Source: an uncultured beta proteobacterium
GTDB lineage: Bacteria > Pseudomonadota > Gammaproteobacteria > Burkholderiales > SG8-41
Length of the DNA stretch: 64,000 nt
Reading direction: 5' to 3'
Assembly: GCA_942492335.1 (NCBI GenBank)
Contig: CALOEN010000002.1
Coordinates: forward strand, 60 to 64,059
Positions 16,696-63,528 of the stretch are shown piece by piece. The notes under the pieces are model-generated. The model had not been told where the DNA came from, made no database searches, and worked only from the letters and a program-made list of their open reading frames with translations. Position numbers and translations under genes: made by a program. The first letter of the stretch is position 1, and every line of letters starts with the position of its first letter.

Positions 16696-16811
16696 GGGTC
16701 AGATTCGGCGATTCATTCGAGTTTCGGCATCATCGTATGCCCGTGCTTTGCACGGGTACGCCTGCGACCCGACCGGATTTTTGTGCCGGCTGGAAAGGGC
16801 GGAAAAGCCAA

Positions 16812-27469: not shown

Positions 27470-27521
27470 GTGGGCCGGGTGGTGGACTTATGAAACGGAT
27501 GGGCAGCGGGTAATCGCGTGC

Positions 27522-34490: not shown

Positions 34491-34559
34491 ACACGCCGCG
34501 ACTTTCTCCCCGGGATCCGTTGCCGATCTGGTAAGCGTTTTAGCGCGCACAGGCAGTTC

Positions 34560-38262: not shown

Positions 38263-38288
38263 CAGTGTGCAGTGCTGATGGGAAAGAT

Positions 38289-38736
38289 ATGGAACTTATA
38301 TTGTGGCGCCATGCCGATGCCGAGGACGGGATGCCTGACACGGGCCGCGAGCTGACCGCGAAGGGTGTCAAGCAGGCCGAACGGATGGCCGCCTGGCTCA
38401 GGGAAAGATTGACGAAGGGACACGGTAGTGCTGGTGAGCCCGGCGCGTCGCGCCCAGCAAACGGCTCAGGCGCTGAGCAAGAAATTCGAGACCAGCGAGG
38501 CTGTCGATACCGCTGCAACGCCCGAGTCGCTGCTTGATGCTGCAGGGTGGCCCGATCGCAAGGGCGCGGTGGTGGTGGTCGGCCATCAGCCGACGCTGGG
38601 TGCGGCGGCGGCGCTGGCGCTGACCGGCAGCGCACAACAGTGGAGCGTCAAGAAAGGGGCGATCTGGTGGCTGGAACTGCGGGAACGCGACCATGTTGCG
38701 GTGTTGCGCGCCGTGCTTTCGCCAGACTTGATTTAG
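38289..38736 (+). pseudogene. sixA: Phosphohistidine phosphatase SixA, frame broken once at GGG 38417-38419; possibly a sequencing error
   Basis: MELILWRHADAEDG (RHA/G motif) in ORF 38253-38537 continues as DTVVLVSPARRAQQTAQAL...VVGHQPTLG in ORF 38428-38736 if one G is removed. Confidence 0.8.
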
Positions 38737-38795: not shown

Positions 38796-40288
38796 ATGTT
38801 CGAATCAGCCAACCTTTCGCACAAGGTCAGTAAGCAGGCCTATCAACGCGAGGAGCCGGGCCTGCGCGCGGCGTTGCTCAACGCCCAATACGATCTTTTT
38901 AAAAATGGCCGATTCCCGGTATTGATTCTGATCGCCGGCGTGGAGGGCGCGGGCAAGGGCGAGACCGTGAACCTGCTCAATGAGTGGATGGATCCGCGCC
39001 ACATCTACGCGCACGCATTTCCCCTGCCCTCCGATGAGGAGCGCGAGCGACCGCCGATGTGGCGGTTCTGGCGCGCGCTGCCGCCGAAGGGCAAGATCGG
39101 GGTTTTTTTCGGCGCGTGGCACACCAGCCCGTCGTCGGACGGGTGCAGGGCATCATCGGCGAAGGTGAATTTTCCCAGAGTATCGCGGAAATTCTGCGTT
39201 TCGAAAAAATGCTAGCCGACGAGGGCGTGCTGCTGCTTAAGTTCTGGTTCCACCTGTCCAAAGACCAGCAGAAGAAACGCCTGAAAGCCCTGGAGAAGGA
39301 CCCCAAAACCAAGTGGCGGGTCACCGATCTCGAGTGGAAATATTTCAAGATTTATAACAAGTTCGTCAAGGTGTGCGAGCCGTTTCTGCGCCGGACTTCC
39401 ACCGGCGAGGCGCCGTGGATCGTGGTGGCGGGCGCCGATCCGCGTTACCGCTCGATTACCGTCGGCCGGCACCTGCTGGCGGCCATGCGCGAGCGCCTCG
39501 ACGAGAAACCGGCCAGGCGCCTGCCCGACAAGACCCCGCCGCTGTTGCCCGCGGCCGATCATCTGAATGTCTTGCGCGCGCTCAAGCTCGACCAGCCGCT
39601 GACCAAAGCCGCTTACGGAAAACAGCTCGAAAAGTGGCAGGGCCGGTTGAATGTCCTGTCGCGCCATCCGCGCTTCAAGAACATATCGGTGGTCCTGGTG
39701 TTCGAGGGCAACGACGCTGCCGGCAAGGGCGGCGCCATCCGCCGCATCACCGGGGCGCTGGATGCGCGCAGCTATCACAGCGTTCCGGTTGCCGCTCCGA
39801 CCGAGGAGGAGCGGGCCCAGCCGTATTTGTGGCGTTTCTGGCGGCATGTCCCGCGTCACGGCCGGATCACCATTTTCGACCGATCGTGGTACGGGCGGGT
39901 ACTGGTGGAGCGTGTCGAGGGTTTTTGCTCCGAAAACGACTGGATGCGCGCTTACACCGAGATCAACGATTTCGAGCAGCAGCTCACTCGGCAGCATATC
40001 GTGGTCGTCAAGTACTGGCTGGCCATCAGCAAGGACGAGCAATTAAGGCGTTTCAAGGAACGGGAGAAAATCGCCTTCAAGCACTTCAAAATCACCGAGG
40101 AAGACTGGCGCAACCGCAAGAAATGGGATGCTTATGAACAGGCGGTGTGCGACATGGTGGACCGCACCTCGACTTCGATCGCGCCGTGGACACTGGTCGA
40201 GGCCAACAACAAATACTACGCGCGGCTCAAGGTGCTCAAGACCCTGTGCCACGCAGTCGAGGCGGCGCTGGAACAGGCCAAGCCCTGA
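38796..40288 (+). pseudogene. ppk2: Two-domain polyphosphate kinase 2 (polyphosphate:AMP phosphotransferase type), frame broken once near 39123-39126; possibly a sequencing error
   Basis: Domain 1 (VLILIAGVEGAGKGETVN, MWRFWRALPPKGKIGVFFGAWH) is in ORF 38547-39215. It continues (QPVVGRVQG...) with domain 2 (VVLVFEGNDAAGKGGAIRR, LWRFWRHVPRHGRITIFDRSWY) in ORF 39059-40288. ATG 38796 is preceded by GGGAGG. Confidence 0.85.
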
Positions 40289-42884: not shown

Positions 42885-43571
42885 TTAATTATGACACTTT
42901 GGTGTCGGTGCACCCGCGGTCAGCGTCAGCACCCCGTCGGCCGTGCCCAGCAGCAGGACGTCGGCGCCGCGTCTCGCAAACAGGCCGTTGGTGACCACGC
43001 CGGCAATCTGGTTCAATGTCGATTCGAGTGCGCCCGGATCGGCGATCTGAAGACCATGCACGTCCAGGATGACATTGCCGTTGTCGGTCGTAAATCCCTG
43101 ACGCAGCAGCGGCCGGCCACCGAGCCGGGTGATCTCGCGCGCGACCTGGGCGCGCGCCATCGGGATCACCTCCACCGGCAGCGGAAACTTGCCGAGCATG
43201 TCGACCAGCTTCGACTGATCGGTGATGCAGACAAACTTGCGGGCCACCGCCGCCACGATTTTTTCCCGGGTGAGCGCCCCGCCGCCGCCTTTGATCATGG
43301 CCAGGTTCCGGGTAATCTCGTCGGCGCCGTCGACATACACCGGGAGATCATCGACGCTGTTCAGGTCGAGCACAGGGATGCCGAGATGCTTTAACCGCTG
43401 GGCCGAGGCCTCGGAGCTCGCAACCGCTCCTGCTATCAGTGCCTTGATGCTGCCCAGTTCTTCAATAAAGAAGTTTGCGGTGGATCCGGTGCCTACACCG
43501 ACAATGCAGCCGGCCGGGATATGGGCGATGGCCGCTTTGGCGACCGCTTGCTTCATTTCGTCTTGAGTCAT
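42885..43571 (-). CDS. rpiA: Ribose-5-phosphate isomerase A
   Basis: [40 protein letters not shown], and [11 protein letters not shown]. The start is ATG 43569-43571; the upstream part of ORF 42885-43685 runs into a repeat array. Confidence 0.93.
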
Positions 43572-43574
43572 AGT

Positions 43575-43700
43575 GGCAATGGTAAACGGTAAGCGATGGG
43601 CGGTAAATGGCTGAAGGCCGAAAGCGGAATGCGGTGAGCGGTTCAACCACGAAACCCTGAGTTGCTTTTTCGGCTTACTGCTCACCGCTTACTTTGCACG
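43575..43700. repeat. Degenerate inverted heptamer array (GGCAATG GTAAACG GTAAGCG ... GCGGTGA / CGGCTTAC TGCTCAC CGCTTAC TTTGCAC)
   Basis: A 7-nt periodicity is visible on the left arm (43575-43641). The right arm (43671-43700) contains the reverse complements of GGTAAGCG and CGGTGAGC. It lies in the divergent rpiA/ilvA promoter region. Confidence 0.7.
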
Positions 43701-43744
43701 CCTATTCCTGCTACTCTTGACGCCTGACTTTTGGTGCCTGTCGC

Positions 43745-45259
43745 ATGAAGAAAATCGATTATCTGGAGCGCATACTCAACGCCCGCGTCTACGACGTCGC
43801 GATCGAATCACCGCTCGAAGCGGCTGCGAATCTGTCGCGCCGCCTGCACAACCGGCTGCTGCTCAAGCGCGAGGACATGCAGCCGGTATTTTCATTCAAG
43901 CTGCGTGGCGCCTACAACAAGATGGTGAAATTGCCGGCGGCTGCATTGGCGCGCGGTGTCATTGCCGCTTCCGCCGGCAACCACGCCCAGGGCGTGGCGC
44001 TGTCGGCGCAGAAGCTCGGTTGTCGGGCGACCATCGTGATGCCGGTCACCACGCCCCAGATCAAGGTCAATGCGGTCAGGCAACTCGGCGCGAAAGTCGT
44101 GCTTTACGGCGATTCCTATGATGAGGCCCATGCCCATGCCCGCGAGCTGGAGCGCAAGCAGAAGCTGACCTTTGTTCATCCTTATGACGATCCGGACGTC
44201 ATCGCCGGCCAGGGCACCATAGGCATGGAGATCCTGAGGCAGCATGCCGACACGATACATGCCATATTCGTCGCCATCGGCGGCGGCGGGCTGGTCTCGG
44301 GGATTGCCGCCTACGTCAAGCGGCTGCGCCCGGAAATAAAAATCATCGGCGTCGAGCCCGTGGACGCGGACGCCATGTACCGTTCGCTCAAGGCCGGACG
44401 GCGGGTAAAACTCGCCCATGTCGGGTTGTTTGCCGACGGGGTGGCCGTGAAGCAGGTCGGTGTTGAGCCCTTCCGTTTGTGCCGCGAGTTGGTCGACGAC
44501 GTGATCCGGGTCGATACCGATGCGATGTGTGCGGCGATCAAGGACGTGTTCGAGGACACGCGGGCGATCCTTGAGCCGGCCGGCGCGCTGGCCATTGCCG
44601 GCGCCAAGGCCTATGTCGAGCGCACCGGGATCAAGGACAAAACGCTGGTAGCAGTGGCTTGCGGCGCCAATATGAATTTCGACCGCCTGCGCTTTGTCGC
44701 TGAGGAAGCCGAGCTGGGCGAAAAACGTGAGGCGATACTCGCCGTCACGATTCCCGAGCATCCAGGCAGTTTCAAGACGTTCTGCGAACTCCTGGGGACG
44801 CGCAGCATTACCGAGTTCAATTACCGTTATGCCGACCCCAGCGCGGCGCATGTGTTCGCCGGCGTACAGGTGCGCAACAAGGAAGAGACCGGGAAGCTGG
44901 TGCGGTCGCTGCGGCGCCACGGACTGAAGACGCACGATTTCAGCGAGAACGAACTGGCCAAGCTCCATATCCGCCATCTGGTCGGCGGTCATGCGCCGAC
45001 GGTGAAAAACGAGATACTCTACCGCTTCGAGTTTCCGGAACGGCCCGGCGCATTGATCAAATTTCTCACCAGCATGAGCCGCGGCTGGAACATCAGCCTG
45101 TTTCATTACCGCAATCACGGCGCCGACTACGGGCGGGTGCTGGTCGGCATGCAGGTGCCGCCGCAGGACCAGAAAAAATTCGGCGCTTTTCTCGCCGAGG
45201 TCGGCTACCCGTATACCAATGAGAGCAAAAATCCGGCGTACCGTCTGTTCCTTGGCTGA
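43745..45259 (+). CDS. ilvA: Threonine ammonia-lyase, biosynthetic
   Basis: 504 aa with the PLP lysine motif (FSFKLRGAYN), GGGGL loop, and two C-terminal ACT-like regulatory domains. Confidence 0.96.
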   Translation: MKKIDYLERILNARVYDVAIESPLEAAANLSRRLHNRLLLKREDMQPVFSFKLRGAYNKMVKLPAAALARGVIAASAGNHAQGVALSAQKLGCRATIVMPVTTPQIKVNAVRQLGAKVVLYGDSYDEAHAHARELERKQKLTFVHPYDDPDVIAGQGTIGMEILRQHADTIHAIFVAIGGGGLVSGIAAYVKRLRPEIKIIGVEPVDADAMYRSLKAGRRVKLAHVGLFADGVAVKQVGVEPFRLCRELVDDVIRVDTDAMCAAIKDVFEDTRAILEPAGALAIAGAKAYVERTGIKDKTLVAVACGANMNFDRLRFVAEEAELGEKREAILAVTIPEHPGSFKTFCELLGTRSITEFNYRYADPSAAHVFAGVQVRNKEETGKLVRSLRRHGLKTHDFSENELAKLHIRHLVGGHAPTVKNEILYRFEFPERPGALIKFLTSMSRGWNISLFHYRNHGADYGRVLVGMQVPPQDQKKFGAFLAEVGYPYTNESKNPAYRLFLG

Positions 45260-45382
45260 CAGGCAGACGTTGCCGGAGGTGCCGCGGATGATTCATGGCC
45301 CGGCCCTCTTGAAACATCAGCGCGCCGGCCTTGTCCAAGTTCCATGTGCTGCGCCGAAACCGGATAGAATAATCAACCCGAA

Positions 45383-47323
45383 ATGACAGATTTTGCTTTG
45401 ATCGCCAGGGCGTTCGTGGGCTGCGGATTGATTGTATTTGCCGCGCTCGCCTGCGGGGCGGACCGGGATGACGATGTGCTCGCCGCGCGCGAGGCTTTTC
45501 GCGTCGGTGACAGCAAGAAACTCGCGCTGCTTGCCAAGCGTCTCGACGGCGATATCCTCGAGTCTTATCCCGTTTACTGGCGGTTGCAGGTGAAGCTGGA
45601 GGCGGCGGATCCCCGGGACATTCGCGCTTTTCTCGCCACCTATCGCGACGGCCCGTTGCCCGAGCGGCTGCGCGCCGACTGGCTGAAGCTGCTCGGCAAA
45701 AACCAGCAGTGGGACATGTTCGAAGCCGAACTGCCGCTGCTTGTCAGAGACGATATCGAGATGGCCTGCTATGCGCTGCAATCCAGGGTCAGGCACGATG
45801 CCCATGCGCTGAGGGAGGCGCGGCCGCTGTGGTTCGTCTCGCAATCTATTCCTGAGAGCTGCAACCCATTGTTCGACGCGCTGGTGGAGGCGAACATGCT
45901 GTCGGCCGACGACCTGTGGACGCGCATCCGGCTTGCACTGGAAGCGGGACGGATCGGACAGGCGCGCCGCGTCGCCAAATTCCTGCAGGGTTCCCAGGCG
46001 CCCGACACCCGGAAGTGGGCCGCGATTTCCTCGAACCCTGCCGGGTATCTCAGAAAGCGCCAATTCGATTTCAAGAGCCGCGCCGGACGGGAAACCGTCA
46101 TGTTTGCAACGTACCGCTTGGCGCGCACGTCACCGCCTCAGGCCGCTGAGCAATGGTCCCGGCTGGAAGAACACTTCAACGAGGACGAGCTCGGCTATGT
46201 GTGGGGCCTGATCGCCTATTTTGGCGCCATCAACCACGATCCGAGCGCACTGGACTGGTATGCCATGGCCGGAGACATGAGCGATGTGCAGCTTGCCTGG
46301 AAGGCGCGTGCCGCTCTTCGTGCCCGCAACTGGCGGGAAGTCATCGCGGCGATAGAGGCCATGACGTCCAGGGAAAGCGCCGAGCCGAGCTGGCGCTACT
46401 GGAAGGCGCGGGCGCTGAAAGAGCTGGGACGCAACGAGGAAGCGGCCGCCCTATGGACGCCGCTTGCCGGTGAATTCAATTTCTACGGGCAGCTCGCAAC
46501 CGAAGAACTCGGCGCGCGGGTCACAAGCCCGGCCACCGCATTCAAGCCGGGTACGGCAGACGTGGCCGCAATCACCAAGCTTCCCGGCATCCAGCGCGCA
46601 TTGGCGTTATTTCGCCTCGATTTGAGAGTGGAAGGCGTGCGCGAATGGGTCTGGGCGATCCGTGGCTTCGACGACAGGCAGTTGCTCGCAGCTGCGGACG
46701 TCGCGCTGAGCAACGGCATCTACGACCGGGCCATCAATACCGCGGACAAGACCGTCATGCTGCACGATTTCACTTTGCGCTATCTTGCGCCCTACCGTGA
46801 TGTGCTGAAGGTGCGCACGGGCGAGATGGGGCTGGATGAGGCGTGGGTCTATGGGTTGATCCGGCAGGAGAGCCGCTTTATCGCCGGCGTGAAATCACGC
46901 GCTGGTGCGAGCGGTCTGATGCAACTCATGCCAGGCACCGCGAAATGGGTGGCCGGCAAGCTCGGGCTCAGGAACTGGCGCTGGTCGCAAGTGACGGAAA
47001 TTGAAACCAACGTCAGTCTCGGCACCTACTATCTGCGCCATGTTCTCGATGTGCTGGACAGCCATCCGGTGCTGGCATCCGCGGCGTACAATGCCGGTCC
47101 GAGCCGGGCCCGCGGCTGGCGGCCCGAGGCCGCGATCGAAGGTGCGATCTATGCCGAAAGCATACCGTTCAATGAGACGCGCAACTATGTTAAAAAAGTG
47201 ATGGCGAATGCCACCTACTATGCTGACGTGCTGGGCCAGCAGGCCCAGACACTGAAGCAGCGTATGGGGGTCATCCCGCCGCGCAACAGCGCCGGGGAAT
47301 CCGGATTGGGCGATACACCATGA
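45383..47323 (+). CDS. slt: Soluble lytic murein transglycosylase (Slt70-like)
   Basis: Signal peptide, a long superhelical U-domain, and a C-terminal SLT domain (ESRF ... GLMQLMPGTA ... AYNAGP). Confidence 0.9.
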   Translation: MTDFALIARAFVGCGLIVFAALACGADRDDDVLAAREAFRVGDSKKLALLAKRLDGDILESYPVYWRLQVKLEAADPRDIRAFLATYRDGPLPERLRADWLKLLGKNQQWDMFEAELPLLVRDDIEMACYALQSRVRHDAHALREARPLWFVSQSIPESCNPLFDALVEANMLSADDLWTRIRLALEAGRIGQARRVAKFLQGSQAPDTRKWAAISSNPAGYLRKRQFDFKSRAGRETVMFATYRLARTSPPQAAEQWSRLEEHFNEDELGYVWGLIAYFGAINHDPSALDWYAMAGDMSDVQLAWKARAALRARNWREVIAAIEAMTSRESAEPSWRYWKARALKELGRNEEAAALWTPLAGEFNFYGQLATEELGARVTSPATAFKPGTADVAAITKLPGIQRALALFRLDLRVEGVREWVWAIRGFDDRQLLAAADVALSNGIYDRAINTADKTVMLHDFTLRYLAPYRDVLKVRTGEMGLDEAWVYGLIRQESRFIAGVKSRAGASGLMQLMPGTAKWVAGKLGLRNWRWSQVTEIETNVSLGTYYLRHVLDVLDSHPVLASAAYNAGPSRARGWRPEAAIEGAIYAESIPFNETRNYVKKVMANATYYADVLGQQAQTLKQRMGVIPPRNSAGESGLGDTP

Positions 47324-47377
47324 TCCGGTATCGCCGTGAATATCGTTAATAAACAATTCCTTAAATAAGGAGAGCCA

Positions 47378-48349
47378 TTGGATATCACTACGGTTTGTGT
47401 GATCGGCGGTTCGGGGTTTGTCGGCCGCCACGTTTGCCGTCAACTTGCCGCACACGGTTACCGGGTGAGGGTGCCGGCGCGGGATCGCGAACGCGCCAAG
47501 GCGCTGATACTGTTGCCGACCGTGGATGTGATCGAGGCCAATATCCATGATGCCGGGCAGCTGTCGCAGGTCATTGCCGGGTGCGACGCGGTGATCAATC
47601 TTGTTGGCTTGCTGCATGACGGGCGCGGCAACAACAGTTTGGTCGCGGCGCATGTCGAACTGCCGCGCAAGATCGTGGCCGCGTGCCAGCGGCGGGGTGT
47701 GCGGCGGCTGGTGCATATGAGCGCGCTCAACGCCGATGTCAACGGGCCGAGCGCCTATCTGCGCAGCAAGGGCGAGGCCGAAGCCATCGTGCGCGCAGCC
47801 GGATTGGACGTCACGGTATTCCGGCCATCGGTGATTTTCGGGCGTGACGATTCGTTTCTCAATTTGTTCGCGAAGCTGCTCCGGTTGCCCATGGTACTGA
47901 TGCCGATACTTCCGCTTGCGAGTCCCGATGCGCGCTTCCAGCCGGTATTCGTCGGGGATGTCGCGGCGGCATTTGTGAAAAGTCTGGAGGGTTTCGACAG
48001 TATCGGCGAAAGCTATGACCTGTGCGGGCCGAAGGTGTACACCCTGCGCGAACTGGTCGAATTCGTCGGTGCTGCGACCGGGCGCGGGCGGCCCATCATC
48101 GGACTCAATGCTGCGTTGTCGTACTGGCAGGCGTTTATGATGGAGTTGTTTCCCATCAAGCAGGTCATGGGCGCGCTCAACATGCTCATGACCCGCGATA
48201 ATCATTACTCGATGAAAATCGACAGTGTCTGCAATTGCGATTTTCCGTTTGGCATACGGCCTGCGGCGCTTGAGGCGGTGGCTCCCGCCTGGCTGACGCC
48301 GGGCACGACGCCGCGTGCGCGCTACCAACGCTTCCGCGCGAGCAGATAG
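47378..48349 (+). CDS. NAD(P)-binding epimerase/dehydratase family protein (complex I NDUFA9-like)
   Basis: Rossmann VIGGSGFVGRHV and SDR-extended architecture. TTG start after AAGGAG. Confidence 0.8.
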   Translation: MDITTVCVIGGSGFVGRHVCRQLAAHGYRVRVPARDRERAKALILLPTVDVIEANIHDAGQLSQVIAGCDAVINLVGLLHDGRGNNSLVAAHVELPRKIVAACQRRGVRRLVHMSALNADVNGPSAYLRSKGEAEAIVRAAGLDVTVFRPSVIFGRDDSFLNLFAKLLRLPMVLMPILPLASPDARFQPVFVGDVAAAFVKSLEGFDSIGESYDLCGPKVYTLRELVEFVGAATGRGRPIIGLNAALSYWQAFMMELFPIKQVMGALNMLMTRDNHYSMKIDSVCNCDFPFGIRPAALEAVAPAWLTPGTTPRARYQRFRASR

Positions 48350-48356
48350 GCAGTGC

Positions 48357-48491
48357 ATGACTCTTAAGCTCGTCATCGGCAACAAGAATTATTCTTCGTG
48401 GTCGGTGCGGGAATGGGGGGCGGCGGCGTGCCGGGAAACCGGGTTGGTCACGGCTGACGAGCCTTATGCCAGCGTGAAAGGTGAATCGTGA
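48357..48491 (+). pseudogene. Relic of a glutathione S-transferase N-terminus (44 codons)
   Basis: MTLKLVIGNKNYSSWS matches the characteristic N-terminus of YfcF-type GSTs. The rest does not, and the frame ends in the GTGAATC repeat array. Confidence 0.45.
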
Positions 48492-48585
48492 ATCGTGAAA
48501 CGAGAGCCCCCTCTTTTCCCTTACCGGGAAAGAAGGTAAGGACCGAGCGCTGTTCTCCATTCACGATTCACCATTTACGATTCAC
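48474..48585. repeat. Inverted tandem-heptamer array: GTGAAAG GTGAATC GTGAATC GTGAAAC (48474-48501), core with its own hairpin CCTTACC-N9-GGTAAGG, then CATTCAC GATTCAC CATTTAC GATTCAC (48558-48585)
   Basis: Read directly. It ends 6 nt before the cca ATG. Confidence 0.92.
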
Positions 48586-48591
48586 GGCCTC

Positions 48592-49717
48592 ATGAAAATA
48601 TATTCAGTAGGCGGCGCGGTGCGCGACGAATTGCTGGGCCTGCCGGTCAAGGACCGCGATTATGTCGTGGTCGGCGCCTCTCCCGAGGAGATGGTCCGGC
48701 TGGGTTACAAGCCGGTGGGCAAGGACTTTCCGGTGTTCCTGCACCCGAAGACGCATGAGGAATACGCGCTGGCGCGCACCGAACGCAAGGTCGCGCGCGG
48801 TTACCACGGCTTCGAAATCAGCGCTTCGCCCGATGTCACGCTGGAGCAGGACTTGGCGCGGCGCGACCTCACGATCAACGCCATCGCTAAAGACGAGCAA
48901 GGCGCCATTACCGACCCGTATCATGGCGCGGCCGATCTCAAGGCCGGTGTGTTGCGCCACGTAAGCCCGGCGTTTACCGAAGATCCGGTGCGCGTCCTGC
49001 GCGTGGCGCGCTTTGCCGCGCGCTTTGGCTTTGTCATCGCCGCGGAAACCCAGGCGCTGATGCGCAGCATGGTGGCAGAGGGCGAGGTCGATGCGCTGGT
49101 CGCCGAGCGCGTATGGCAGGAAGTGGCGAGTGGCCTGATGGAACAGAGTCCCTCGCGCATGTTCAAGGTGCTGCGCGAATGCGGTGCGCTCAGTCGCGTC
49201 ATGCCCGAGATCGATGCCTTGTTCGAATCCGCGTGCTGCCCTCGATGCGCTGGATGCCGCGGCGCTGGCCGGATCTGCGCTCGAGGTGCGGTTCGCTGTG
49301 CTGGCGCGCACGCTGACGCCGCCGGCAGTCGAAGCACTTGCCGAGCGTCTGCGCGCGCCGGCCGCATGCCGCGACCTGGCGTTGCTCGCGGCGCGCCATG
49401 CCCATGCCATCACCGGTGCCGCAGCGCTCAATGCCGAGGCTTTGCTCGAACTATTCAATGACTCGGATGCGTGGCGCCGCCCTGAGCGCTTTACAGATTT
49501 GATGACGGCTGCGCTGGTCGCCGAGCCGGCAGCGCCGGCGTCACGCGCCAGACTGGAGCGTGCGTGGCAGGCCGCGGTGGCAGTCAACGCTGGGAAGATC
49601 GCGCAGGCCGCGGGCAAGGATGGCGACATCCGCGATCGCATCAACTCGGCGCGACTGGAAGCTGTGCGCCATACGCGAACATCGGAAAGCGGTGATGAGT
49701 TAATGAGTAATGCGTGA
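48592..49717 (+). pseudogene. cca: CCA tRNA nucleotidyltransferase, frame broken once around 49222-49235; possibly a sequencing error
   Basis: Class II NTase head ([24 protein letters not shown]) in ORF 48592-49461 up to PEIDALFE. It continues [24 protein letters not shown]...DAWRRPERF in ORF 49184-49717. Confidence 0.85.
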
Positions 49718-49767
49718 TGAGTGACGGGTGAACGCAGTCCACGATTTTGCTCATTACCCATTACCCG
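49691..49767. repeat. Inverted heptamer array (GGTGATG AGTTAATG AGTAATG CGTGATG AGTGACG GGTGAAC / CTCATTACC CATTACC)
   Basis: Read directly. The last 9 codons and the stop of cca lie in the left arm. Confidence 0.85.
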
Positions 49768-49787
49768 ACACGAACTAAGGAGCTGAA

Positions 49788-50411
49788 ATGATCGATCTTT
49801 ACACCTGGACCACGCCCAACGGCCGCAAGGTCTCCATCATGCTCGAGGAATGCGGTCTGCCCTATAACGTGCACCCCATCCACATCGGCAAGAACGAGCA
49901 GTTCACGCCCGGGTTCATCGCGATCAGCCCCAACAGCAAGATACCCGCGATCGTCGATTCCGACGGGCCGGACGGCAAGCCCTACGCGATGATGGAGTCG
50001 GGCGCGATCCTGCTTTACCTCGCCGAAAAGACCGGCAAGTTCCTGCCGCAGTCAGCGCGCGGCAAGTACGACGCGATGCAATGGGTGATGTTCCAGATGG
50101 GCGGCGTTGGCCCGATGTTCGGCCAGGTCCACCATTACCTGCGTGCGGCCAAGGAACCGGTGCCGTACGCGATTGAGCGCTACACCAGGGAAACCCAGCG
50201 GCTCTACGGTGTGCTCAACGACCGGCTCAAGGACCACGAGTATCTTGCCGACGAATACTCGATCGCCGACATCACGACTTATCCGTGGGTGGCGCGTTTC
50301 GAGTGGCACAAGACCGACCTCATGGAATATGCGCACGTGAAGCGCTGGTTCGACAAGCTCTCGGCACGGCCTGCGGTACAGCGCGGGATGAAAGTGCCGG
50401 TGGTGGCGTGA
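49788..50411 (+). CDS. Glutathione S-transferase family protein (Nu-class, YfcG-like)
   Basis: MIDLYTWTTPNGRKVSIMLEE...ISPNSKIPAIVD...ESGAILLYLAEK is typical of YfcG/YghU-type GSTs. Confidence 0.85.
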   Translation: MIDLYTWTTPNGRKVSIMLEECGLPYNVHPIHIGKNEQFTPGFIAISPNSKIPAIVDSDGPDGKPYAMMESGAILLYLAEKTGKFLPQSARGKYDAMQWVMFQMGGVGPMFGQVHHYLRAAKEPVPYAIERYTRETQRLYGVLNDRLKDHEYLADEYSIADITTYPWVARFEWHKTDLMEYAHVKRWFDKLSARPAVQRGMKVPVVA

Positions 50412-50467
50412 GCGAGAGGGGATCGAAGGGATGAGAGATGAGGTGCGCGCACTGCGCGCGCTTCATG

Positions 50468-51352
50468 TCATGCCCCAATGTCCGCAAGCAGGCTTTTGAC
50501 CTCGGCGCGGCCTGCCTCGGACAGCGGTGTCTGAGGCGGCAGTGGCGCGCCGACCTCATAGCCTTGGAGTTCCAGGCCGCCCTTGATACATGCCGCCAGA
50601 TTGTACTTGGCGAAGACCCGGTTCACGCGCCAGAGGCTGCGCTGCAATCTCATCGCCTCCTCCCATTTTCCGGCATGACACAGGTTGTAGAGCTGCACGC
50701 TTTGCCGGGGCACGACGCACGCCGGACCCGCCATCCAGCCCACGCCCCCGATCAACATGACGCAGGCAGGGATATGGGCAGAAGCGCTAAAGACGCGTAT
50801 ACGCTCGCCGACGGCGTTGATAATGCTCAGCAACCTGCCTGTATCGGAGGAGGCATCCTTGATATAGCAGACGTTCTCTATTTTTGCGAGACGCTCGATG
50901 GCGGGGAGCGTGAGGTCGCTGCGCTGAAACTGCGGATTCGTATAGAGCACGACCGGTAACACGGTAGCGTTTGCCATTGCGGTGAAATAGGCCACCACGC
51001 CGTCCTCGTTGAGAGGAAAGTAGGCTTCGAGTATCCCCAGGATGCCATCAACACCAAGCGCCGAGTATGCTTTAACCTGTTCGGCCGCATCGGCTATGGT
51101 AGTGGCTGCCACACCGGCCACGACAGGCACTCTGCCGCGCGTCGCCTGCACGACGACCTCCACAATGCGATGGCGTTGCTCCCGGTTCAAATAGGCAAAC
51201 TCCCCAGTCGAGCCCAGGGGCGTCAGGCCGTGGACCCCGGCGGCTATCAGATCGTTCACCAGCCGCGTCAATACTGTGTCCTTGACCCGGCCGCCATCGT
51301 CTATGGGTGAAACCAGATAGGGAAAAACGCCGTGAAATTTGTCGTGTGCCAT
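50468..51352 (-). CDS. Dihydrodipicolinate synthase family (class I aldolase) protein
   Basis: [19 protein letters not shown], a Schiff-base lysine context (YIKDAS), 294 aa. Confidence 0.85.
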
Positions 51353-51385
51353 GACCTTCTCCCGAATTGTTTGTGTCCTCTGCGT

Positions 51386-52566
51386 CTAAGGTTTGTGTGT
51401 TGAAGGTTCATTTCGCGCATTGCGCTGAAGGAAGCGGATGATTTCATCGGTCTTGAGCACCGGGGCTCCAGGAGACACGGGCCCAGGGGGGGGGGGGGGG
51501 GGGAAAGAAAACCGCGGCCCGAGGCGCGCGACTGGGGAGAATGCGCGGCGGCGGAGCCGTAGAGGAGGGGGGAGAGGAGGGAGGAAAGGGAAAGGGGGGG
51601 AGTGAAGGGATCGAGAATAAGGGGGAGATGGGACGCGTCAAGATGAGGGGGAGGGGGGGAGAGGGGGGAGGAAGGGGAGGGAGGGGGGGGGAGGAGGGGG
51701 ATTTGGGGGGTTGGGGGTAGGGGGGGGAGGGGGAGGGGGGGGGGGGGAGGAGGGGGGGGGGGGGAGTAGGGGGGGGGAGAGGAAGGGGGGAAGAGAAGAG
51801 AAGAGAAGGGGAGGGGGGGGGGGGGGGGCGGAGGGGGGGGAGCGGGGGGCGGGCGGCTCGCTGGCGCCGACCACGACATTGGCCCACGATATGTGCTGCT
51901 TCATGCGCCGCACCACCTGTGGCCATTCGCGCGCGGTGTGGCGGCGCGGGTCGGGCAAGGCATGGCATTGCGAGCAGGCGATGCTGAACATCTGGCCCGC
52001 TGCAGAGGCGAGCGCCGGATGTTTGGGGTCGATTTCCTTCTGGCCATGTTTCTGCAGGTAGAGCGTGAGCGTCGCGACCTCTTCATCGGTTGGCGCGTGG
52101 ACGTTGTCCATCATACCTTTCATCAGCCTGCCCATGTTGCCCTTGCCCTGCATGCGCCATACCATGCGTTCCACCGTTTTTCCCCAGTTGGCGGCGGTAT
52201 GCATTTGCGGATTGGGAAGGTAATGGCATTGAACGCAGTATTGCGTGGCGAGGCGCGCGCCTTCCGATTTCGGTTCGGGCAATTGAGCGGGCTCGATTGC
52301 GCGCGGCAGGATGCGCTCGAGCATGGTGCCGTGCGGGCTTTGCGACCAGAGAGAGGAGCGACGAGGGAGGCGTCGGGAGGGTGGACAGGGCCCCAGGGCG
52401 GGCCCTGGCGACATCCGGTGGGATTCTGTGGCATGCGCACCGGCTGTAAACTCCACAAGCGGATGTCTTGGCTATTGTCAGCAGGCGTCACTGCGGCAAG
52501 CGTGCCCGTCGCGAAAACGGCGGCCAGCATGCCCATTCCCCACCGGGTTTTTCTCAGAGCCGTCAT
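51386..52566 (-). pseudogene. Periplasmic dihaem c-type cytochrome, interrupted by a polypurine tract and at least one frameshift near its 5' end
   Basis: Signal peptide MTALRKTRWGMGMLAAVFATGTLAAVTPA (ATG 52564-52566) is in one frame. Two modules with CVQCH and CSQCH are in ORF 51638-52456. The expected tail of module 2 (PVLKTDEIIRFLQRNARNEPSTHKP, stop 51386-51388; compare module 1 APTDEEVATLTLYLQKHGQKE) lies in the same frame on the far side of the G/A tract. Confidence 0.6.
51486..51855 (+). repeat. ~370 nt low-complexity polypurine tract (almost only G and A on the + strand; G runs of 18 and 16)
   Basis: Read directly: G18 at 51486-51503, G16 at 51813-51828, and dozens of GGGG+ runs separated by A/GA. 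There is essentially no T or C apart from a ~40 nt island (51511-51560). Confidence 0.95.
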
Positions 52567-52690
52567 CAGCCATCCTGTTGTGCGCGCCATGGGTGAATGT
52601 TCGCTGTGGCGCGCGTGCCCGGTCTTTATCATAGCGCACGCGTCTTGATGCGGGAAATGGCGGGACTACCGGTAAAGCGCCCACATGGAT

Positions 52691-53899
52691 TCATAACGTA
52701 TGAGTCTTGTCGCCAGTGGCGAATCCGAGCAGCGGCAACGTGATGCCCTTGCCGAACGCGATGACTTTGAACAGCTCGCCCATTTCGGCGGGCGAGAGCA
52801 GCTTTTGTGCCTGTGATACGAGCGGCGCATAGACGCGTGCATCGGACGCCGGCGTCTCCCCCAGTATGCCGGTGATGCCGCAGTTGATCAGGAACTGCGC
52901 CTGATTGGTATAGCCCAGCACGTCAAGGCCGGAAGCCGCGCCCGCGTGAGCGATGGCGCTGAAGTCGACGTGGGCGGTGATGTCCTGCAGTCCCGTCAGG
53001 CACAACGGGTCGGCGTGAGCGTGGTGGCGATAATGGCACATCAGCGTGCCGCTGCTGCGCTGCGGATGATAGTACTCGTGCGCCGGAAAACCGTAGTCGA
53101 TGAAGAGGATGGCGCCGCGCTTGAGAACACGCGCGAAGCTTTTCACGAACGCGCGCGCTGCGAGCTGGACTTCAGTTTCGTAACCGTCCGGCAACTCGAG
53201 AGTCCGGGCGGCAGCCAGCAGCGCGCCATCGGCCGCGCGATAAGCGCGCACGAACGCGCCGCCGCTCTTGTCCTCGGTGATGCCCATCTCCTCGATGGTG
53301 CCGCCGTGCATGCGAACGATGTGCGCCGGCATCGCGTCGAGCACCTCGTTGCCGACGATGATGCCATTGAAATCGGCCGGCAGCACATCCAGCCATTGCG
53401 CGCTGGCGGCCTGCTGCGGCGCGCGTTCGGCAATGCGTTGCTGCTGGCGTTCGCGCAGATCGGCGCTGACTTCGAGTATGCAGTAGCGATCCGGCGCATG
53501 GCCCAGCGCGGCCAGTTCCGGCAGCAGATCTGCAGCGAGGGCGCCACTGCCGGCGCCGATCTCGAGTACATCGCGCAGGCCGCTACCGATCAGTTCGGCA
53601 AGCTGGCGCGCCAGGCAGCGGCTGAATAACGGGGCAAATTCCGGGGCGGTGATGAAATCACCGTCTTGCCCGAGTTTGCGACTGCCCGCGCTGTAATATC
53701 CGAGGCCCGGCGCATAGAGCGCAAGCTCCATGTAGCGTGCAAAGCTGATCCAGCCCCGATTGGCGGCCAACTCTGCGGTGATCAGCGTGGTCAACTGGTC
53801 GCTTATCGCCTGTGCTTCGGCAGAAGGCGCCGGCAGATGCGCGAGATGGAGCGGAATCTTCACGCCACGGATGATGCTCGAATAGGCTAAAATAAACAA
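52691..53899 (-). CDS. Class I SAM-dependent methyltransferase (DUF185 / NDUFAF7-MidA family)
   Basis: SAM motif LEIGAGSGALAADLL plus family-typical YYSAGSRKLGQDGDFITAPE. Confidence 0.8.
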   Translation of the reverse strand: MFILAYSSIIRGVKIPLHLAHLPAPSAEAQAISDQLTTLITAELAANRGWISFARYMELALYAPGLGYYSAGSRKLGQDGDFITAPEFAPLFSRCLARQLAELIGSGLRDVLEIGAGSGALAADLLPELAALGHAPDRYCILEVSADLRERQQQRIAERAPQQAASAQWLDVLPADFNGIIVGNEVLDAMPAHIVRMHGGTIEEMGITEDKSGGAFVRAYRAADGALLAAARTLELPDGYETEVQLAARAFVKSFARVLKRGAILFIDYGFPAHEYYHPQRSSGTLMCHYRHHAHADPLCLTGLQDITAHVDFSAIAHAGAASGLDVLGYTNQAQFLINCGITGILGETPASDARVYAPLVSQAQKLLSPAEMGELFKVIAFGKGITLPLLGFATGDKTHTL

Positions 53900-53943
53900 T
53901 ATGCTGAGAGCGGCCGCCAGGAAGGCAGGCCGCTCATCTCGTT

Positions 53944-54702
53944 ATGGCCCACAACACTCATCTCGAAGGCAAGGTCGTGCTGATCACCGGCGGCGCCAAA
54001 CGCGTCGGTGCGGCGATCTGTCGCCGGCTGCACGCCGCCGGTGCCAATATGATGGTGCACTATCGCAGTTCGACCGTCGAGGTGCGCGCGCTCAAATCGG
54101 AATTGACCGCGCAGCGCAGCGGTTCCGTGGCGTTGGTGCAGGCCGACCTGCTCAAACCCGATGCCTTGCCGAACCTGGTCAAGGCTACGGTCAAGGAATT
54201 TGGCCGGCTCGATGCGCTTATCAACAATGCCTCGAGTTTTTATCCGACACCGGTGGGCGAAATTACCGAGAAAGCCTGGGACGATCTGATCGGCACCAAT
54301 CTCAAGGTGCCGATGTTCCTGTCTCAGGCCGCGGCGAAGGAACTGAGGAAAGCGCACGGCTGCATCGTCAATATCATCGACATACACGCCGAGTTCCCGA
54401 TGAAAAATTACGTCGTCTATACCGCAGGAAAAGGCGGATTGCTGGCCCTGACGCGCTCGCTTGCGCGCGAGCTCGGCCCCGAAGTGCGTGTCAACGGCAT
54501 CGCCCCCGGCACTATCCTGTGGCCGGACGACGAGAGCTGGCAGGACGAAGTCTCGCGCCAGCGCATCATCAACCAGACGGCATTGAAGCGCATCGGCGAG
54601 CCCGACGATATCGCCAAGGCAGTGGAATTCCTGATCGCCAACGCCCCCTATGTCACCGGCCAGGTGCTTGCGGTCGACGGCGGACGTAGTGTGAATCTTT
54701 AA
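53944..54702 (+). CDS. Pteridine reductase (short-chain dehydrogenase)
   Basis: TGGAKRVG cofactor motif, NNASSF, and catalytic YxxxK (YTAGKGG). Confidence 0.82.
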   Translation: MAHNTHLEGKVVLITGGAKRVGAAICRRLHAAGANMMVHYRSSTVEVRALKSELTAQRSGSVALVQADLLKPDALPNLVKATVKEFGRLDALINNASSFYPTPVGEITEKAWDDLIGTNLKVPMFLSQAAAKELRKAHGCIVNIIDIHAEFPMKNYVVYTAGKGGLLALTRSLARELGPEVRVNGIAPGTILWPDDESWQDEVSRQRIINQTALKRIGEPDDIAKAVEFLIANAPYVTGQVLAVDGGRSVNL

Positions 54703-54708
54703 ATTTCA

Positions 54709-54836
54709 GCCACAGAGAACACAGAGAAAATCTTGAATCTAAGTCTGCAATTGACACAAGAGTCTGCCACTCAGCGCTATGAAAGTTTTTTCGTGGCCGA
54801 TTCATTTTTGTTGCCTTCCTCTGTTTTCTCTGTGGC
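54709..54836. repeat. Inverted repeat of short purine-rich units: GCCACAGAGAACACAGAGAAAA (54709-54730) / CCTCTGTTTTCTCTGTGGC (54818-54836)
   Basis: Read directly. It has the same arms-plus-core architecture as the heptamer arrays and sits between the reductase stop and the ttcA start. Confidence 0.8.
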
Positions 54837-54850
54837 AAACGTTTTTAAGA

Positions 54851-55720
54851 ATGAACATGAACGCACCTGAATCCAGAATCGTCCAGAAGCAGCAGTACGA
54901 GGCGAACAAACTCGCCAAGCGCCTGCGCCGCCTGGCCGGGCAGGCGATCGCCGATTTCGACATGATCCGCGCCGGCGACAAGGTCATGGTGTGCCTCTCC
55001 GGCGGCAAGGACAGTTACACGCTGCTCGATGTCCTGATGCATCTGCGCGAGCACGCGCCTATCGAGTTCGACATCGTCGTGGTCAATCTCGACCAGAAAC
55101 AGCCCGGTTTTCCGGAGCATGTGCTGCCGGATTATCTGACGCGGCTCGGCGTGCCGTTCCGGATAGAAGAGCAGGACACCTACAGCGTGGTGAAGCGCGT
55201 CATTCCCGAAGGCAAAACCATGTGCTCGCTGTGTTCGCGACTGCGGCGCGGCGTGCTCTACCGCGTGGCGGGCGAACTGGGTGCGACCAAAATTGCGCTC
55301 GGCCACCATCGCGACGACATCCTGGAGACGTTTTTTCTCAATCTGTTTTATGGCGGCAAGTTGAAAACGATGCCGCCCAAACTGGTGTCCGATGACGGCA
55401 AGCATGTCGTGATCCGGCCGCTGGCCTACTGCAAAGAAGATGACCTGGCCGGGTATGCCGAGGTCAGGCAGTTTCCGATCATTCCGTGCACGCTGTGCGG
55501 TTCGCAGGAGACATTGAAACGCAGGGAAGTAAAGGCGCTGCTGCGTGAATGGGAAAAGCGCCATCCCGGGCGCGTCGAAACCATATTCACTGGCATGCAG
55601 AACGCACAGCCATCGCATCTGCTGGACCGCGCGCTGCACGATTTTTGCTGCCGTGGGCGGCGACCGGGATCGCACCAGAAGATGGCGACCGCGCCTTCGA
55701 CCCACTGGATGATAGAATAA
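54851..55720 (+). CDS. ttcA: tRNA 2-thiocytidine(32) synthetase TtcA
   Basis: PP-loop [18 protein letters not shown] and CTLCGS cysteine motifs. The start is ATG 54851. The C-terminus probably continues in another frame after the T5 run 55642-55646 ([18 protein letters not shown], stop 55732-55734). Confidence 0.9.
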
Positions 55721-55823
55721 ATAGTTATTTATAATCAATAAGTTATAAAATATCTACGCTTGGCTTCGGGCGTCCACTCCGCAATTGTCAAAATAATTGC
55801 GACATGGTAATCTCGCGCATCTT

Positions 55824-56060
55824 ATGAACTGCGCCCAACGCCTAGTCGCCATATTCGGCACCCAAGCCGAAGTCGCCCGCCGCTTTCGCTTGGCGCGCGC
55901 CGTCGTCAACAACTGGGTCAAAACCGGTTACGTGCCGGCGCGCTGGGCGATGGAAGTCGAACAAGTTACCGATGGTCAGATTCCGGCAGTCGAAATACTC
56001 AGTGAAGCCAATACCCGCGAAACCGGTCCGCCTGGAAGTCGCGGTCGGACGGGGAAATAA
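55824..56060 (+). CDS. Small Cro/YdaS-like helix-turn-helix protein
   Basis: MNCAQRLVAIFGTQAEVARRFRLARAVVNNWVKTGYVPARWAMEVEQVT resembles YdaS/Cro-type DNA-binding proteins. It is preceded by an AT-rich patch and a palindrome GCAATT-N8-AATTGC. Confidence 0.6.
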   Translation: MNCAQRLVAIFGTQAEVARRFRLARAVVNNWVKTGYVPARWAMEVEQVTDGQIPAVEILSEANTRETGPPGSRGRTGK

Positions 56061-56092
56061 TTTCTTTGATACGACTTTTCAGGGAGAGCTAC

Positions 56093-57351
56093 ATGATGAT
56101 ACAATTCGCGCCTGCCAAACGCATCAGGCTCTTTCCACCCTCCGCGCCGCACGCTGATGGGGCCGGGGCCGACGGAAATCCATCCGCGCGTGCTGACCAC
56201 CATGAGCCAGCCGGCCATCGGCTATCTCGATCCGAAATTCGTCGAGATGATGGAAGAGCTCAAATCGCTGCTGCGTTATGCCTACCAGACGAAAAATCCG
56301 CTGACCTTCCCGATCTCGGGTCCGGGCTCGGTGGGCATGGAATACTGTTTCGTCAACCTGGTTGCGCCGGGCGACAAGGTGATTGTCTGCCGCAATGGCG
56401 TGTTCGGCGGCCGCATGATCGAAAACGTCGAGCGCTGCGGCGGCATACCCATCGTGGTCGAGGACAATTGGGGCGAGCCGGTCGATCCGCAGAAGCTGGA
56501 AGACGCGCTCAAGAAAAATCCCGGTGTGCGCGTTGTCGCGTTCGTCCACGCCGAGACCTCCACCGGCGTGCTGTCGGATGCCAAGACCCTGGTCGAGATT
56601 GCCCACAAACATAAAGCGCTGACCATCGTCGATGCCGTGACTTCGCTTGGCGGCTCGCCGGTGCTGGTCGACGAATGGAAAATCGACGCGGTGTATTCCG
56701 CCAGCCAGAAATGCCTGTCGTGCACGCCGGGTCTGTCGCCGGTATCGTTCTCGGAGCAAGTGGTCGATTACGTCAAGGCGCGCAAGGACAAGATCCACAG
56801 CTGGTTCATGGACATGAACCTGCTGCTCGGCTACTGGGGCGAAACCACGCGCACCTATCACCACACCGCGCCGACCAATTCGCTGTTTGCCTGCACGAGG
56901 CGCTGCTGCTGATCCGCGAAGAAGGACTGGAGAATGCCTGGGCACGTGCGCCGCGATCACATCGCGCTCAAAGCCGGCCTCGAAGCGATGGGCTTGAAGT
57001 TCCTCGTCAAGGAGCAATACCAGATCCCGCAGATGAACGCGATCTGTATGTCCCGAAGGCGTCAATGAAGCCGAGGTGCGCAAACGCCTGCTGTCCGAAT
57101 TCAGCCTGGAAATTGGTGCAGGCCTGGGCCCGCTTGCCGGCAAGATCTGGCGCTTCGGCCTGATGGGCTATTCCTGCCGGCCCGCCAACGTCATGCTGTG
57201 CCTCTCGGCGCTGGGTTCGGTGCTAGATGATCTCGGCTATGCGGTGCATGTCGGTGATGCCGAAGCCGCGGCCCACGGTGCGTATGCCGCGATGCATGCC
57301 GAGGCAGCTCAAACCAAGAAAAAGCGCGAAGCGGCCAAAGCCGCTGCTTAA
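56093..57351 (+). pseudogene. Class V aminotransferase (alanine-glyoxylate / serine-pyruvate type), at least four frame breaks
   Basis: The pieces are MMIQFAPAKRIRL | FHPPRRTLMGPGPTEIHPRVL...SASQKCLSCTPGLSPV...APTNSLFA | LHEALLLIREEGLENAW.. | RRDHIALKAGLEAMGLKFLVKEQYQIPQMNAI | VCPEGVNEAEVRKRLLSEFSLEIGAGLGPLAGKIWRFGLMG. The breaks lie near 56132-56134, 56889-56891, 56940-56948 and 57045. Confidence 0.82.
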
Positions 57352-57371
57352 CGCCTTTTATTTTTCGCTGG

Positions 57372-57400
57372 AACCGGCCGCCGCGCGCGGCCGGTTTTGT
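57372..57400. terminator. GC-rich hairpin between the convergent aminotransferase and mgtE genes (bidirectional terminator candidate)
   Basis: AACCGGCCG ccgcgcg CGGCCGGTT followed by TTGTTT on the + strand, and preceded by a T-rich run for the other strand. Confidence 0.6.
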
Positions 57401-62444: not shown

Positions 62445-62515
62445 GGTGTGCGTTTCGTTAATTGAAAAAAGGCGCTTAGAATATCAGATAAGCTCCGATT
62501 TATAAAACAAAATCC

Positions 62516-63403
62516 ATGATAATCCCGTTGTTGCGACTGATCGCGCGGCTGCCGCTGGCGTGGCTGCACTGTGCCGGCGCCGCGTTGGGCTGGCTGGTCT
62601 ATCGGACCTCCCCCACCTATGCGGCGCGCCTCAGGGATAACCTTTTCTCCAGCGGGGTATGCACGGAAGCGGCGACCTGCGCGGTGCTGTTGCGCCAGGT
62701 CGTGGCGGAAACCGGAAAAGGCGCGGCCGAACTGATCGCGGTCTGGTTCGGTGCTGACGAACGTGTCGCGCAGTGGGTACGGTGCGACACCTGGCACGTC
62801 GTCGAGCAGGCCCAGCGCGGCGGCAAAGGACTGATATTCCTTACGCCGCATCTCGGATGTTTCGAAATATCCGCGCTCTATGGCGCACAGCGCCTGCCGA
62901 TTACCGTGCTCTATCGTCCGCCCAAACTGCGCTGGATAGAGCCGCTGATGGTCGCGGGCCGCAGCCGCTGGCAGTCGAACCTGGCGCCCGCGAGCCTGCG
63001 CGGCGTGCGCACGCTGTACAAGGCGTTGCAGCGCGGAGAAGCGGTAGGCCTGCTGCCGGATCAGGCGCCGGGCGTGGGCGAAGGCGCATGGGCTGATTTT
63101 TTTGGGCGCCCTGCCTATACCATGACGCTGGTGGCGCGGCTGCAAAAAGCCACGGGCGCGGCGGTGATCATGGCGTTTGCCGAGCGTTTGCCGCACGGCG
63201 CCGGTTACCATTTACATTTGCAACAGGTGCCGGATTCGGGTCTCGACGAGACCGCGCTCAATCGCGCGATCGAGGCGATTGTGCGCACCTGTCCTGCGCA
63301 GTATCTGTGGAGCTATAACCGTTACAAGGTGCCCGCAGGGGCGGAGAAACCAGGGATGAAGGGAATCAGGGATGAGGGCGGAAAGAGCGGGGATGAGGGA
63401 TGA
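62516..63403 (+). CDS. Lipid A biosynthesis (Kdo)2-lipid IVA acyltransferase (LpxL/HtrB family)
   Basis: HX4D/E motif TPHLGCFE and LPDQ. The C-terminal ~15 codons and the stop lie inside the GGGATGAG repeat array, so the true end is uncertain. Confidence 0.85.
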   Translation: MIIPLLRLIARLPLAWLHCAGAALGWLVYRTSPTYAARLRDNLFSSGVCTEAATCAVLLRQVVAETGKGAAELIAVWFGADERVAQWVRCDTWHVVEQAQRGGKGLIFLTPHLGCFEISALYGAQRLPITVLYRPPKLRWIEPLMVAGRSRWQSNLAPASLRGVRTLYKALQRGEAVGLLPDQAPGVGEGAWADFFGRPAYTMTLVARLQKATGAAVIMAFAERLPHGAGYHLHLQQVPDSGLDETALNRAIEAIVRTCPAQYLWSYNRYKVPAGAEKPGMKGIRDEGGKSGDEG

Positions 63404-63528
63404 GGGCAGAAGGATGAGGGTAACAGCGATGAATCTGGCGTGGCCAGCTAGTCGTAACATTCCCGATGACGAATCTGAGAAGGAACTTCGGTTTTTTTTC
63501 ATCCCTCATCCCTCATCCCTCATCCCTC
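63353..63528. repeat. Inverted heptamer/octamer array: GGGATGAA GGGAATCA GGGATGAG ... GGGATGAG GGATGAG GGCAGAA GGATGAG (63353-63421), ~78 nt core, 4 x CATCCCT (63500-63528)
   Basis: Read directly. It lies between the two acyltransferase genes, and a T8 run precedes the right arm. Confidence 0.92.

Follow-up and report, generated by a model that had tools for sequence, protein, structure and literature searches.

A G/A-rich tract within a dihaem cytochrome c gene of an uncultured Burkholderiales bacterium, very probably an artefact of sequencing, assembly or base calling

The 64,000-nt stretch of contig CALOEN010000002.1 analysed here (the window), from an uncultured beta proteobacterium of the Burkholderiales, carries on its minus strand a gene for a dihaem cytochrome c that is interrupted by a long stretch composed largely of G and A. 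The class of the gene is given by a match to PF13442 (3.9e-06, above the gathering score) and by two CxxCH motifs, which were found in all 120 of the sequences compared. Homologues of its protein numbered 1704 at E <= 0.001, and the closest of them, from Burkholderiales MAGs, are 85-88% identical to it over 156 residues. In order of their coordinates, the parts of the locus are:

51386 to 51463, minus strand: intact 3' end of the gene, PVLKTDEIIRFLQRNARNEPSTHKP followed by a TAG stop, which provides the C-terminal helix of haem module 2
51464 to 51856, plus strand: the G/A-rich tract, which stands in place of 12 nt (LRTx) in relatives
51638 to 51640, minus strand: in-frame TGA within the tract, which closes the frame that holds both haem motifs (ORF 51638-52456, from its translation)
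51857 to 52351, minus strand: core of the gene with the two CxxCH motifs, from ...LWSQSPHG to ...VVVGASE, matched by PF13442 and free of window-specific indels
52352 to 52358, minus strand: a second lesion, a 7-nt deletion with substitutions, located by DNA alignment with L030 (P0007) and L031 (P0005) and by three-frame translations
52359 to 52566, minus strand: signal peptide and variable linker (MTALRKTRWGMGMLAAVFATGTLAAV...), aligned to the N-termini of P0005 and P0007

Another cytochrome gene of the window, on the minus strand at 14254-16698, encodes a large multihaem protein (Cytochrome_C7/c554/c552-type matches) fused to TPR and CcmH-like TPR regions; it appears intact and is unrelated to the tract.

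The limits of the tract were set by gap-free blastn alignment of its flanks to L001 (JAUXMZ010000025), a contig syntenic with positions 43355-57397 of the window at 84-92% nucleotide identity, and what remains without homology between them is 393 nt, or 131 codons. The initial annotation had placed the tract at 51486-51855, an interval that does belong to it (G 68%, A 21%, C 6.5%, T 4.3%), but the non-homologous part is wider, and over its full length the base make-up is G 66.4%, A 21.1%, C ~8% and T ~4%. G forms ten separate runs, each 7-18 nt long, the longest being G18 at 51486-51503, G16 at 51813-51828 and two of G13, and together they account for 10 of the 21 homopolymer runs of at least 7 nt in the window, in the rest of which no run exceeds 9 nt. 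Purine content per 100 nt reaches 0.99, the mean of the window being 0.51 (sd 0.057), and 92 of the window's 96 overlapping G4-motif starts fall inside the tract, so that the earlier remark that nothing else in the window resembles it is borne out by runs, purines and G4 motifs alike. Composition by bin revealed that complexity drops from left to right on the plus strand: the left ~120 nt are fairly complex (G 40-65%, C 15-25%), the right ~190 nt have G 68-82%, C near 0 and hardly any T, and the strand is G-rich all the way to both junctions. The length is divisible by three, the gene flanks on the two sides share a frame, and one TGA lies in that frame; on recount, these features, along with the runs and the composition, were all as first described.

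One other 100-nt stretch of the window, and only one, is skewed toward purines. It lies at 63334-63434, with repeated GGGATGAGGG units, at the 3' end of the unannotated ORF 62492-63403, and about 60 nt after it, following a T8 run, comes an inverted counterpart, (CCCTCAT)n, at 63500-63527; the arrangement looks like an intergenic repeat or hairpin element.

Comparison with relatives revealed what the tract replaces. The alignment to L001 is gap-free to 51463 and resumes at 51857, the space between being 12 nt in L001 and 393 nt in the window. On one side of it, the 3' end of the gene aligns without gaps to L001 (84% nucleotide identity) and also to the tails of all 119 homologues examined; on the other, the core at 51857-52351 has 87.7% nucleotide identity to L001 with no gaps, and 64% of the differences sit at one codon position. 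The same 119 homologues, without exception, read ...WANVVVGASE-LRTx-PVLKTDEIIRFLQR... into the segment that holds PVLKTDE, with a four-residue spacer of invariant length, and in each of them 54 residues separate the second CxxCH from the C-terminal helix motif (114 by pattern match and five by eye). The spacer had been expected, by analogy with the first haem module, to comprise some 20 residues, which is too long given the four (LRTx, 12 nt) that relatives possess. An insertion at this spacer was seen in none of the 119, the tract is absent from all 31 related loci, and across the 385 kb of those loci there is neither a G run of 10 or more nor a 100-nt window above 80% purine. Exact 24-26-mers of the tract and its left flank likewise found no match in JGI metagenome contigs. 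Direct joining of VVVGASE to PVLKTDE through a short segment in relatives had been named in advance as evidence against a genuine insertion, and that is the arrangement in 119 of 119, a result with which a lineage-specific insertion is still compatible. Judged from these alignments, the true sequence at this position would almost certainly be 12 nt encoding Leu-Arg-Thr-x.

The tract is not the only damage to the gene. The lesion at 52352-52358, 495 nt from the tract and independent of it, combines its 7-nt deletion with clustered substitutions; the conserved KARY of AKARYLWSQSPHG is lost, and the signal peptide is put out of frame with the haem domains. Whether the tract is an artefact or real, the gene as written is non-functional: it lacks an in-frame signal peptide, its frame closes within the tract, and haem module 2 is cut off from its C-terminal helix. 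The sole 100% match to the query in the protein databases was P0001, a 228-aa gene call that is a singleton from one NCBI contig, takes an internal Met as its start and the TGA within the tract as its stop. P0001 is presumably the gene call made on this very contig, so the tract would already stand in the public record.

Could the tract nevertheless be something that the cell uses, that is, an element that acts by phase variation or by forming G-quadruplexes or H-DNA, or else a proline-rich linker native to the cytochrome? Its length keeps the reading frame (393 = 3 x 131), its translation is mostly Pro/Ser/Leu, with Pro alone making up 49%, and its G4 motifs are dense, all of which would suit such a role. 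The codons tell otherwise: CCC serves for 67% of the Pro residues in the tract and CCG for 3%, against 31% and 55% in neighbouring genes. Ser and Leu codons show a similar skew. The tract is not evolved coding sequence. The literal reading of the tract as a Pro/Ser/Leu linker is thus accurate as translation and fails as native coding, since the codon usage is unlike that of the host genes, the frame is stopped within the tract and all homologues lack the linker. As for phase variation, which the initial annotation had put forward as the alternative to an artefact, the constant spacer of the 119 homologues and the absence of the tract from all relatives stand against it, and the tract is not one homopolymer or perfect repeat whose length could be adjusted. 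No repeat number would restore the gene, because of the in-frame TGA, the 131 extra codons in a four-residue spacer and the frameshift upstream. A functional element of either kind is therefore effectively excluded, and we give it next to no credence.

Searches for other biological signatures were similarly negative. A hidden tandem-repeat unit was considered and rejected, as TRF returned only overlapping periods with 68-76% matches over the main body of the tract, and its exact or near-exact arrays were restricted to the G18 run and two short arrays of ~2 copies at the left end. A mobile element (IS or MITE) was rejected as well: neither a TSD nor a TIR is present, a second copy was not found, and the 12 nt of the relatives were replaced, not duplicated. 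Neither the rest of the window nor the 31 loci nor JGI metagenome contigs yielded a similar sequence, and Rfam gave no RNA-family match at E <= 1 over 50000-53500.

The composition of the tract has a plausible technical counterpart. In two-colour Illumina sequencing, C is seen in the red channel only, T in the green channel only and A in both, and G is the lack of signal (PMC6129281); a dark cluster is called G, and C and T each need one channel, and for that reason both fade to G in reads that lose signal. The tract has the proportions that such a process leaves, with A at 21.1% compared with 19.7% in the window and C+T down to 12.5%. In a simulation, random 393-nt chunks of the window had C and T converted to G until 12.5% C+T was left, and the products had G at 0.68 and A at 0.20, and their longest run of G averaged 13.7 (95th percentile 20), values close to the 0.664, 0.211 and 18 of the tract. 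The A-spacing statistics of the tract were inside the normal range of the window. Runs of at least 13 nt number four, against 0.9 expected under the simulation, and this excess fits a heavier loss toward the right side of the tract. The agreement is a quantitative fit, not proof.

If signal loss had simply masked local sequence, the tract should be traceable to it, and we considered and rejected the notion that it is a G-masked copy of the sequence due after the junction. An ungapped offset scan of its non-G bases against both strands of the whole window gave no outlier. When G was allowed as a wildcard, Smith-Waterman alignment to the 800-nt flanks scored 17-20, with the null at 19.6 (sd 2.6) and a positive control at 280. 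A match noticed by eye between ATGCGCGGCGGCGG and ATGCGCCGCACCACC was put down to chance.

The same wildcard approach produced a candidate source for the left end of the tract. A specific sub-case of the artefact reading has the junk start from a chimeric read of another organism in the sample, in which the left ~120 nt would be a stretch of cca from a distant Burkholderiales relative, degraded by C/T-to-G change, and the rest would be signal-loss sequence. The alignment behind this idea pairs 51465-51585 (121 nt) with L008:11886-12005, inside the cca gene of L008, at a score of 41.75, where the maxima of 25 shuffled or reversed controls were 30-39.75; 39 of the 51 non-G tract bases agree, and G stands for C or T at 31 positions. 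Orthologous cca segments exceeded the 95th percentile of the null in 16 of 18 sequences, and L011 and L009 also match. These orthologous scores are not independent of one another, however, the alignment itself includes 16 contradictions and five gaps, and a competing locus, L002, scores 31 for the same segment of the tract. The window's own cca is at the null level (20.75), and significance after the many trials comes to only ~0.01-0.04. On balance we regard a cca origin of the left end as rather unlikely.

The cytochrome gene has company in its damage. Window-specific indels were called by alignment to at most six relatives per gene together with Pfam coverage, a GC3 frame plot having proved too noisy for finding frameshifts. 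In cca (plus strand, 48568-49669), an 11-nt deletion near 49231, seen against six relatives, splits the multifunctional CCA-adding enzyme into two frames. A class-V aminotransferase gene (plus strand, 56100-57350), intact in five to six relatives, has -1 at 56890, -2 at 56942 and +1 at 57046, with a possible fourth indel, +1 at 56127, that may lie upstream of the coding start; third codon positions still account for ~80% of its substitutions. Two further broken genes lie immediately downstream of ppk1 (34491-36638) and the gene for a CYTH-CHAD protein (36661-38262): a sixA-like phosphohistidine phosphatase gene (~38253-38736), which by Pfam coverage is split between two frames near 38420, and a two-domain ppk2 (~38826-40288), which is split near 39120, with profile positions 2-99 of the first PPK2 domain in one frame and the remainder in a different one. 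In the second of two tandem copies of trkH (26011-27521), the TrkH profile is matched only from position 114; with ~380 nt unassigned upstream (~27.14 kb), this copy is possibly cut at its N-terminus by another frameshift. In all, breaks affect about 6 of some 55 genes. Alignment of eight neighbouring genes to relatives revealed no frame-breaking indels, and Pfam coverage was full-length for glnA, an ntrC-like gene, pyrB, ppk1, oligopeptidase A and others. Such clustering would be seen with low-quality patches and with true pseudogenes alike.

The distribution of differences from L001 gives an indication of when the genes were broken. Four of the five segments of the broken genes have 64-93% of their differences at a single codon position, the exception being the downstream segment of cca at 49%, and in the intact neighbours the range is 56-85%. 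With this codon-position bias kept, selection must have acted on the broken genes during practically the whole of their divergence, and the lesions are then either errors or very recent.

On the view that the insertion is real, the organism is one that is losing dispensable genes: the cytochrome gene would have been inactivated first, for instance by the 7-nt deletion, and untemplated or slippage-driven synthesis at a break would later have left a G-rich polypurine stretch, which could persist in a gene that was already dead. The second, independent lesion in the same gene is what this account expects, as are the multi-nucleotide sizes of other lesions (deletions of 11, 7 and 2 nt) and their grouping in the non-essential-looking cca, sixA, ppk2, aminotransferase and second trkH genes, a pseudogene-like pattern set off by the eight neighbours free of frame-breaking indels and the full Pfam coverage of glnA, pyrB and ppk1. 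The strand consistency of the tract is also in its favour. Against it, no bacterial process is known to produce ~390 nt of G/A-rich, non-repetitive sequence, TRF gave no repeat unit for slippage to expand, and G runs of 13 to 18 would be very unstable during replication. Nor do the relatives hold anything alike in 385 kb, and the broken genes retain the codon-position bias of genes under selection. We consider an insertion into an already dead gene quite improbable, and the full proposition, a real, strand-asymmetric G/A tract of ~390 bp laid down by untemplated or runaway-slippage synthesis at a break in a lineage shedding dispensable genes, highly improbable. Were it true, it would be a dense G-quadruplex/H-DNA-forming polypurine insertion without a described counterpart in bacteria, and the mechanism of its synthesis would be new.

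The reading that we favour is that the tract is an artefact of sequencing, assembly or base calling and very probably no part of the organism's genome. We infer the artefact, and the platform behind it, from the absence of the tract in relatives, the lack of any biological signature, the fit of its composition and the other defects of the contig, and on the same grounds the initial annotation, which preferred dark-cycle poly-G reads or a low-quality long-read patch, appears to have been right. The junk would have been built into a draft contig, probably a MAG, by an assembly, gap-closing or consensus step. Its likeliest source would be reads that had lost signal, in which C and T were turned to G, leaving G and A; tails of this kind may have been extended from the left flank and then butt-joined to the next good sequence. 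Extension from one side with a butt join is assumed because, had tails grown inward from the two flanks, the plus strand would be rich in G next to one junction and in C next to the other. The gradient of composition along the plus strand resembles a decaying read. As a second possibility, the tract may derive from a stalled or low-quality part of a single long read that lay beyond the reach of short-read polishing. Of the two, junk from two-colour signal loss fits better.

Some observations pull the other way. At 393 nt the tract exceeds one short read, its plus strand is G-rich as far as both junctions, and it is no masked copy of its own flanks, three points that one-sided extension with a butt join would reconcile. 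The small lesions of the contig cluster in a few dispensable-looking genes, as true pseudogenes would. For a raw long-read patch in particular, there is the difficulty that the 495 nt between the two lesions of the cytochrome gene are without any indel. A search of the literature on poly-G or long-read junk within assembled contigs found nothing specific.

If the tract is an artefact, its relevance is one of data hygiene only: a public contig holds ~390 nt of junk, and a truncated 228-aa "protein", P0001, is already in the protein databases, and both the entry and the contig should be treated with caution. Given the further suspicious frameshifts, counts of gene content or of pseudogenes from this genome would be untrustworthy without the reads.

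It remains to set the tract beside the systems that it most resembles. Simple-sequence contingency loci, such as those of Neisseria and Haemophilus and the fim promoters of Bordetella, are single tracts of ~8-20 nt that are conserved between strains and prone to slippage, and some repeat number gives an intact gene. The tract is like them in having long G/C runs on one strand in or beside a gene; it is unlike them in its ~ten interrupted runs within 393 nt, its in-frame stop, the lack of relatives that share it and the second frameshift of the gene. With unpolished long-read patches, as they occur in hybrid or polished drafts, it shares a strand-consistent, low-complexity insertion, collinear flanks and the company of other gene-breaking indels, and it departs from them in that the interval between the two lesions is indel-free and the small indels are not associated with homopolymers. 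To our knowledge, there is no documented case of long-read junk that is specific to G and A.

The closest likeness is to the poly-G tails of two-colour instruments (NextSeq, NovaSeq), set out in the fastp paper (PMC6129281), which show the same dominance of G, retention of A and depletion of C and T, the same long bursts of G and the same fall in complexity along one strand. Unlike such tails, the tract is longer than one read, lies inside a contig, is G-rich up to both junctions and is not a masked copy of local sequence. The gene that it interrupts is otherwise an ordinary member of the dihaem c-type cytochromes of Burkholderiales MAGs (PF13442 / PF09626-like, 220-265 aa), whose source entries for the most part give them no name, and among these it is this contig's gene alone that has the tract and the 7-nt deletion.
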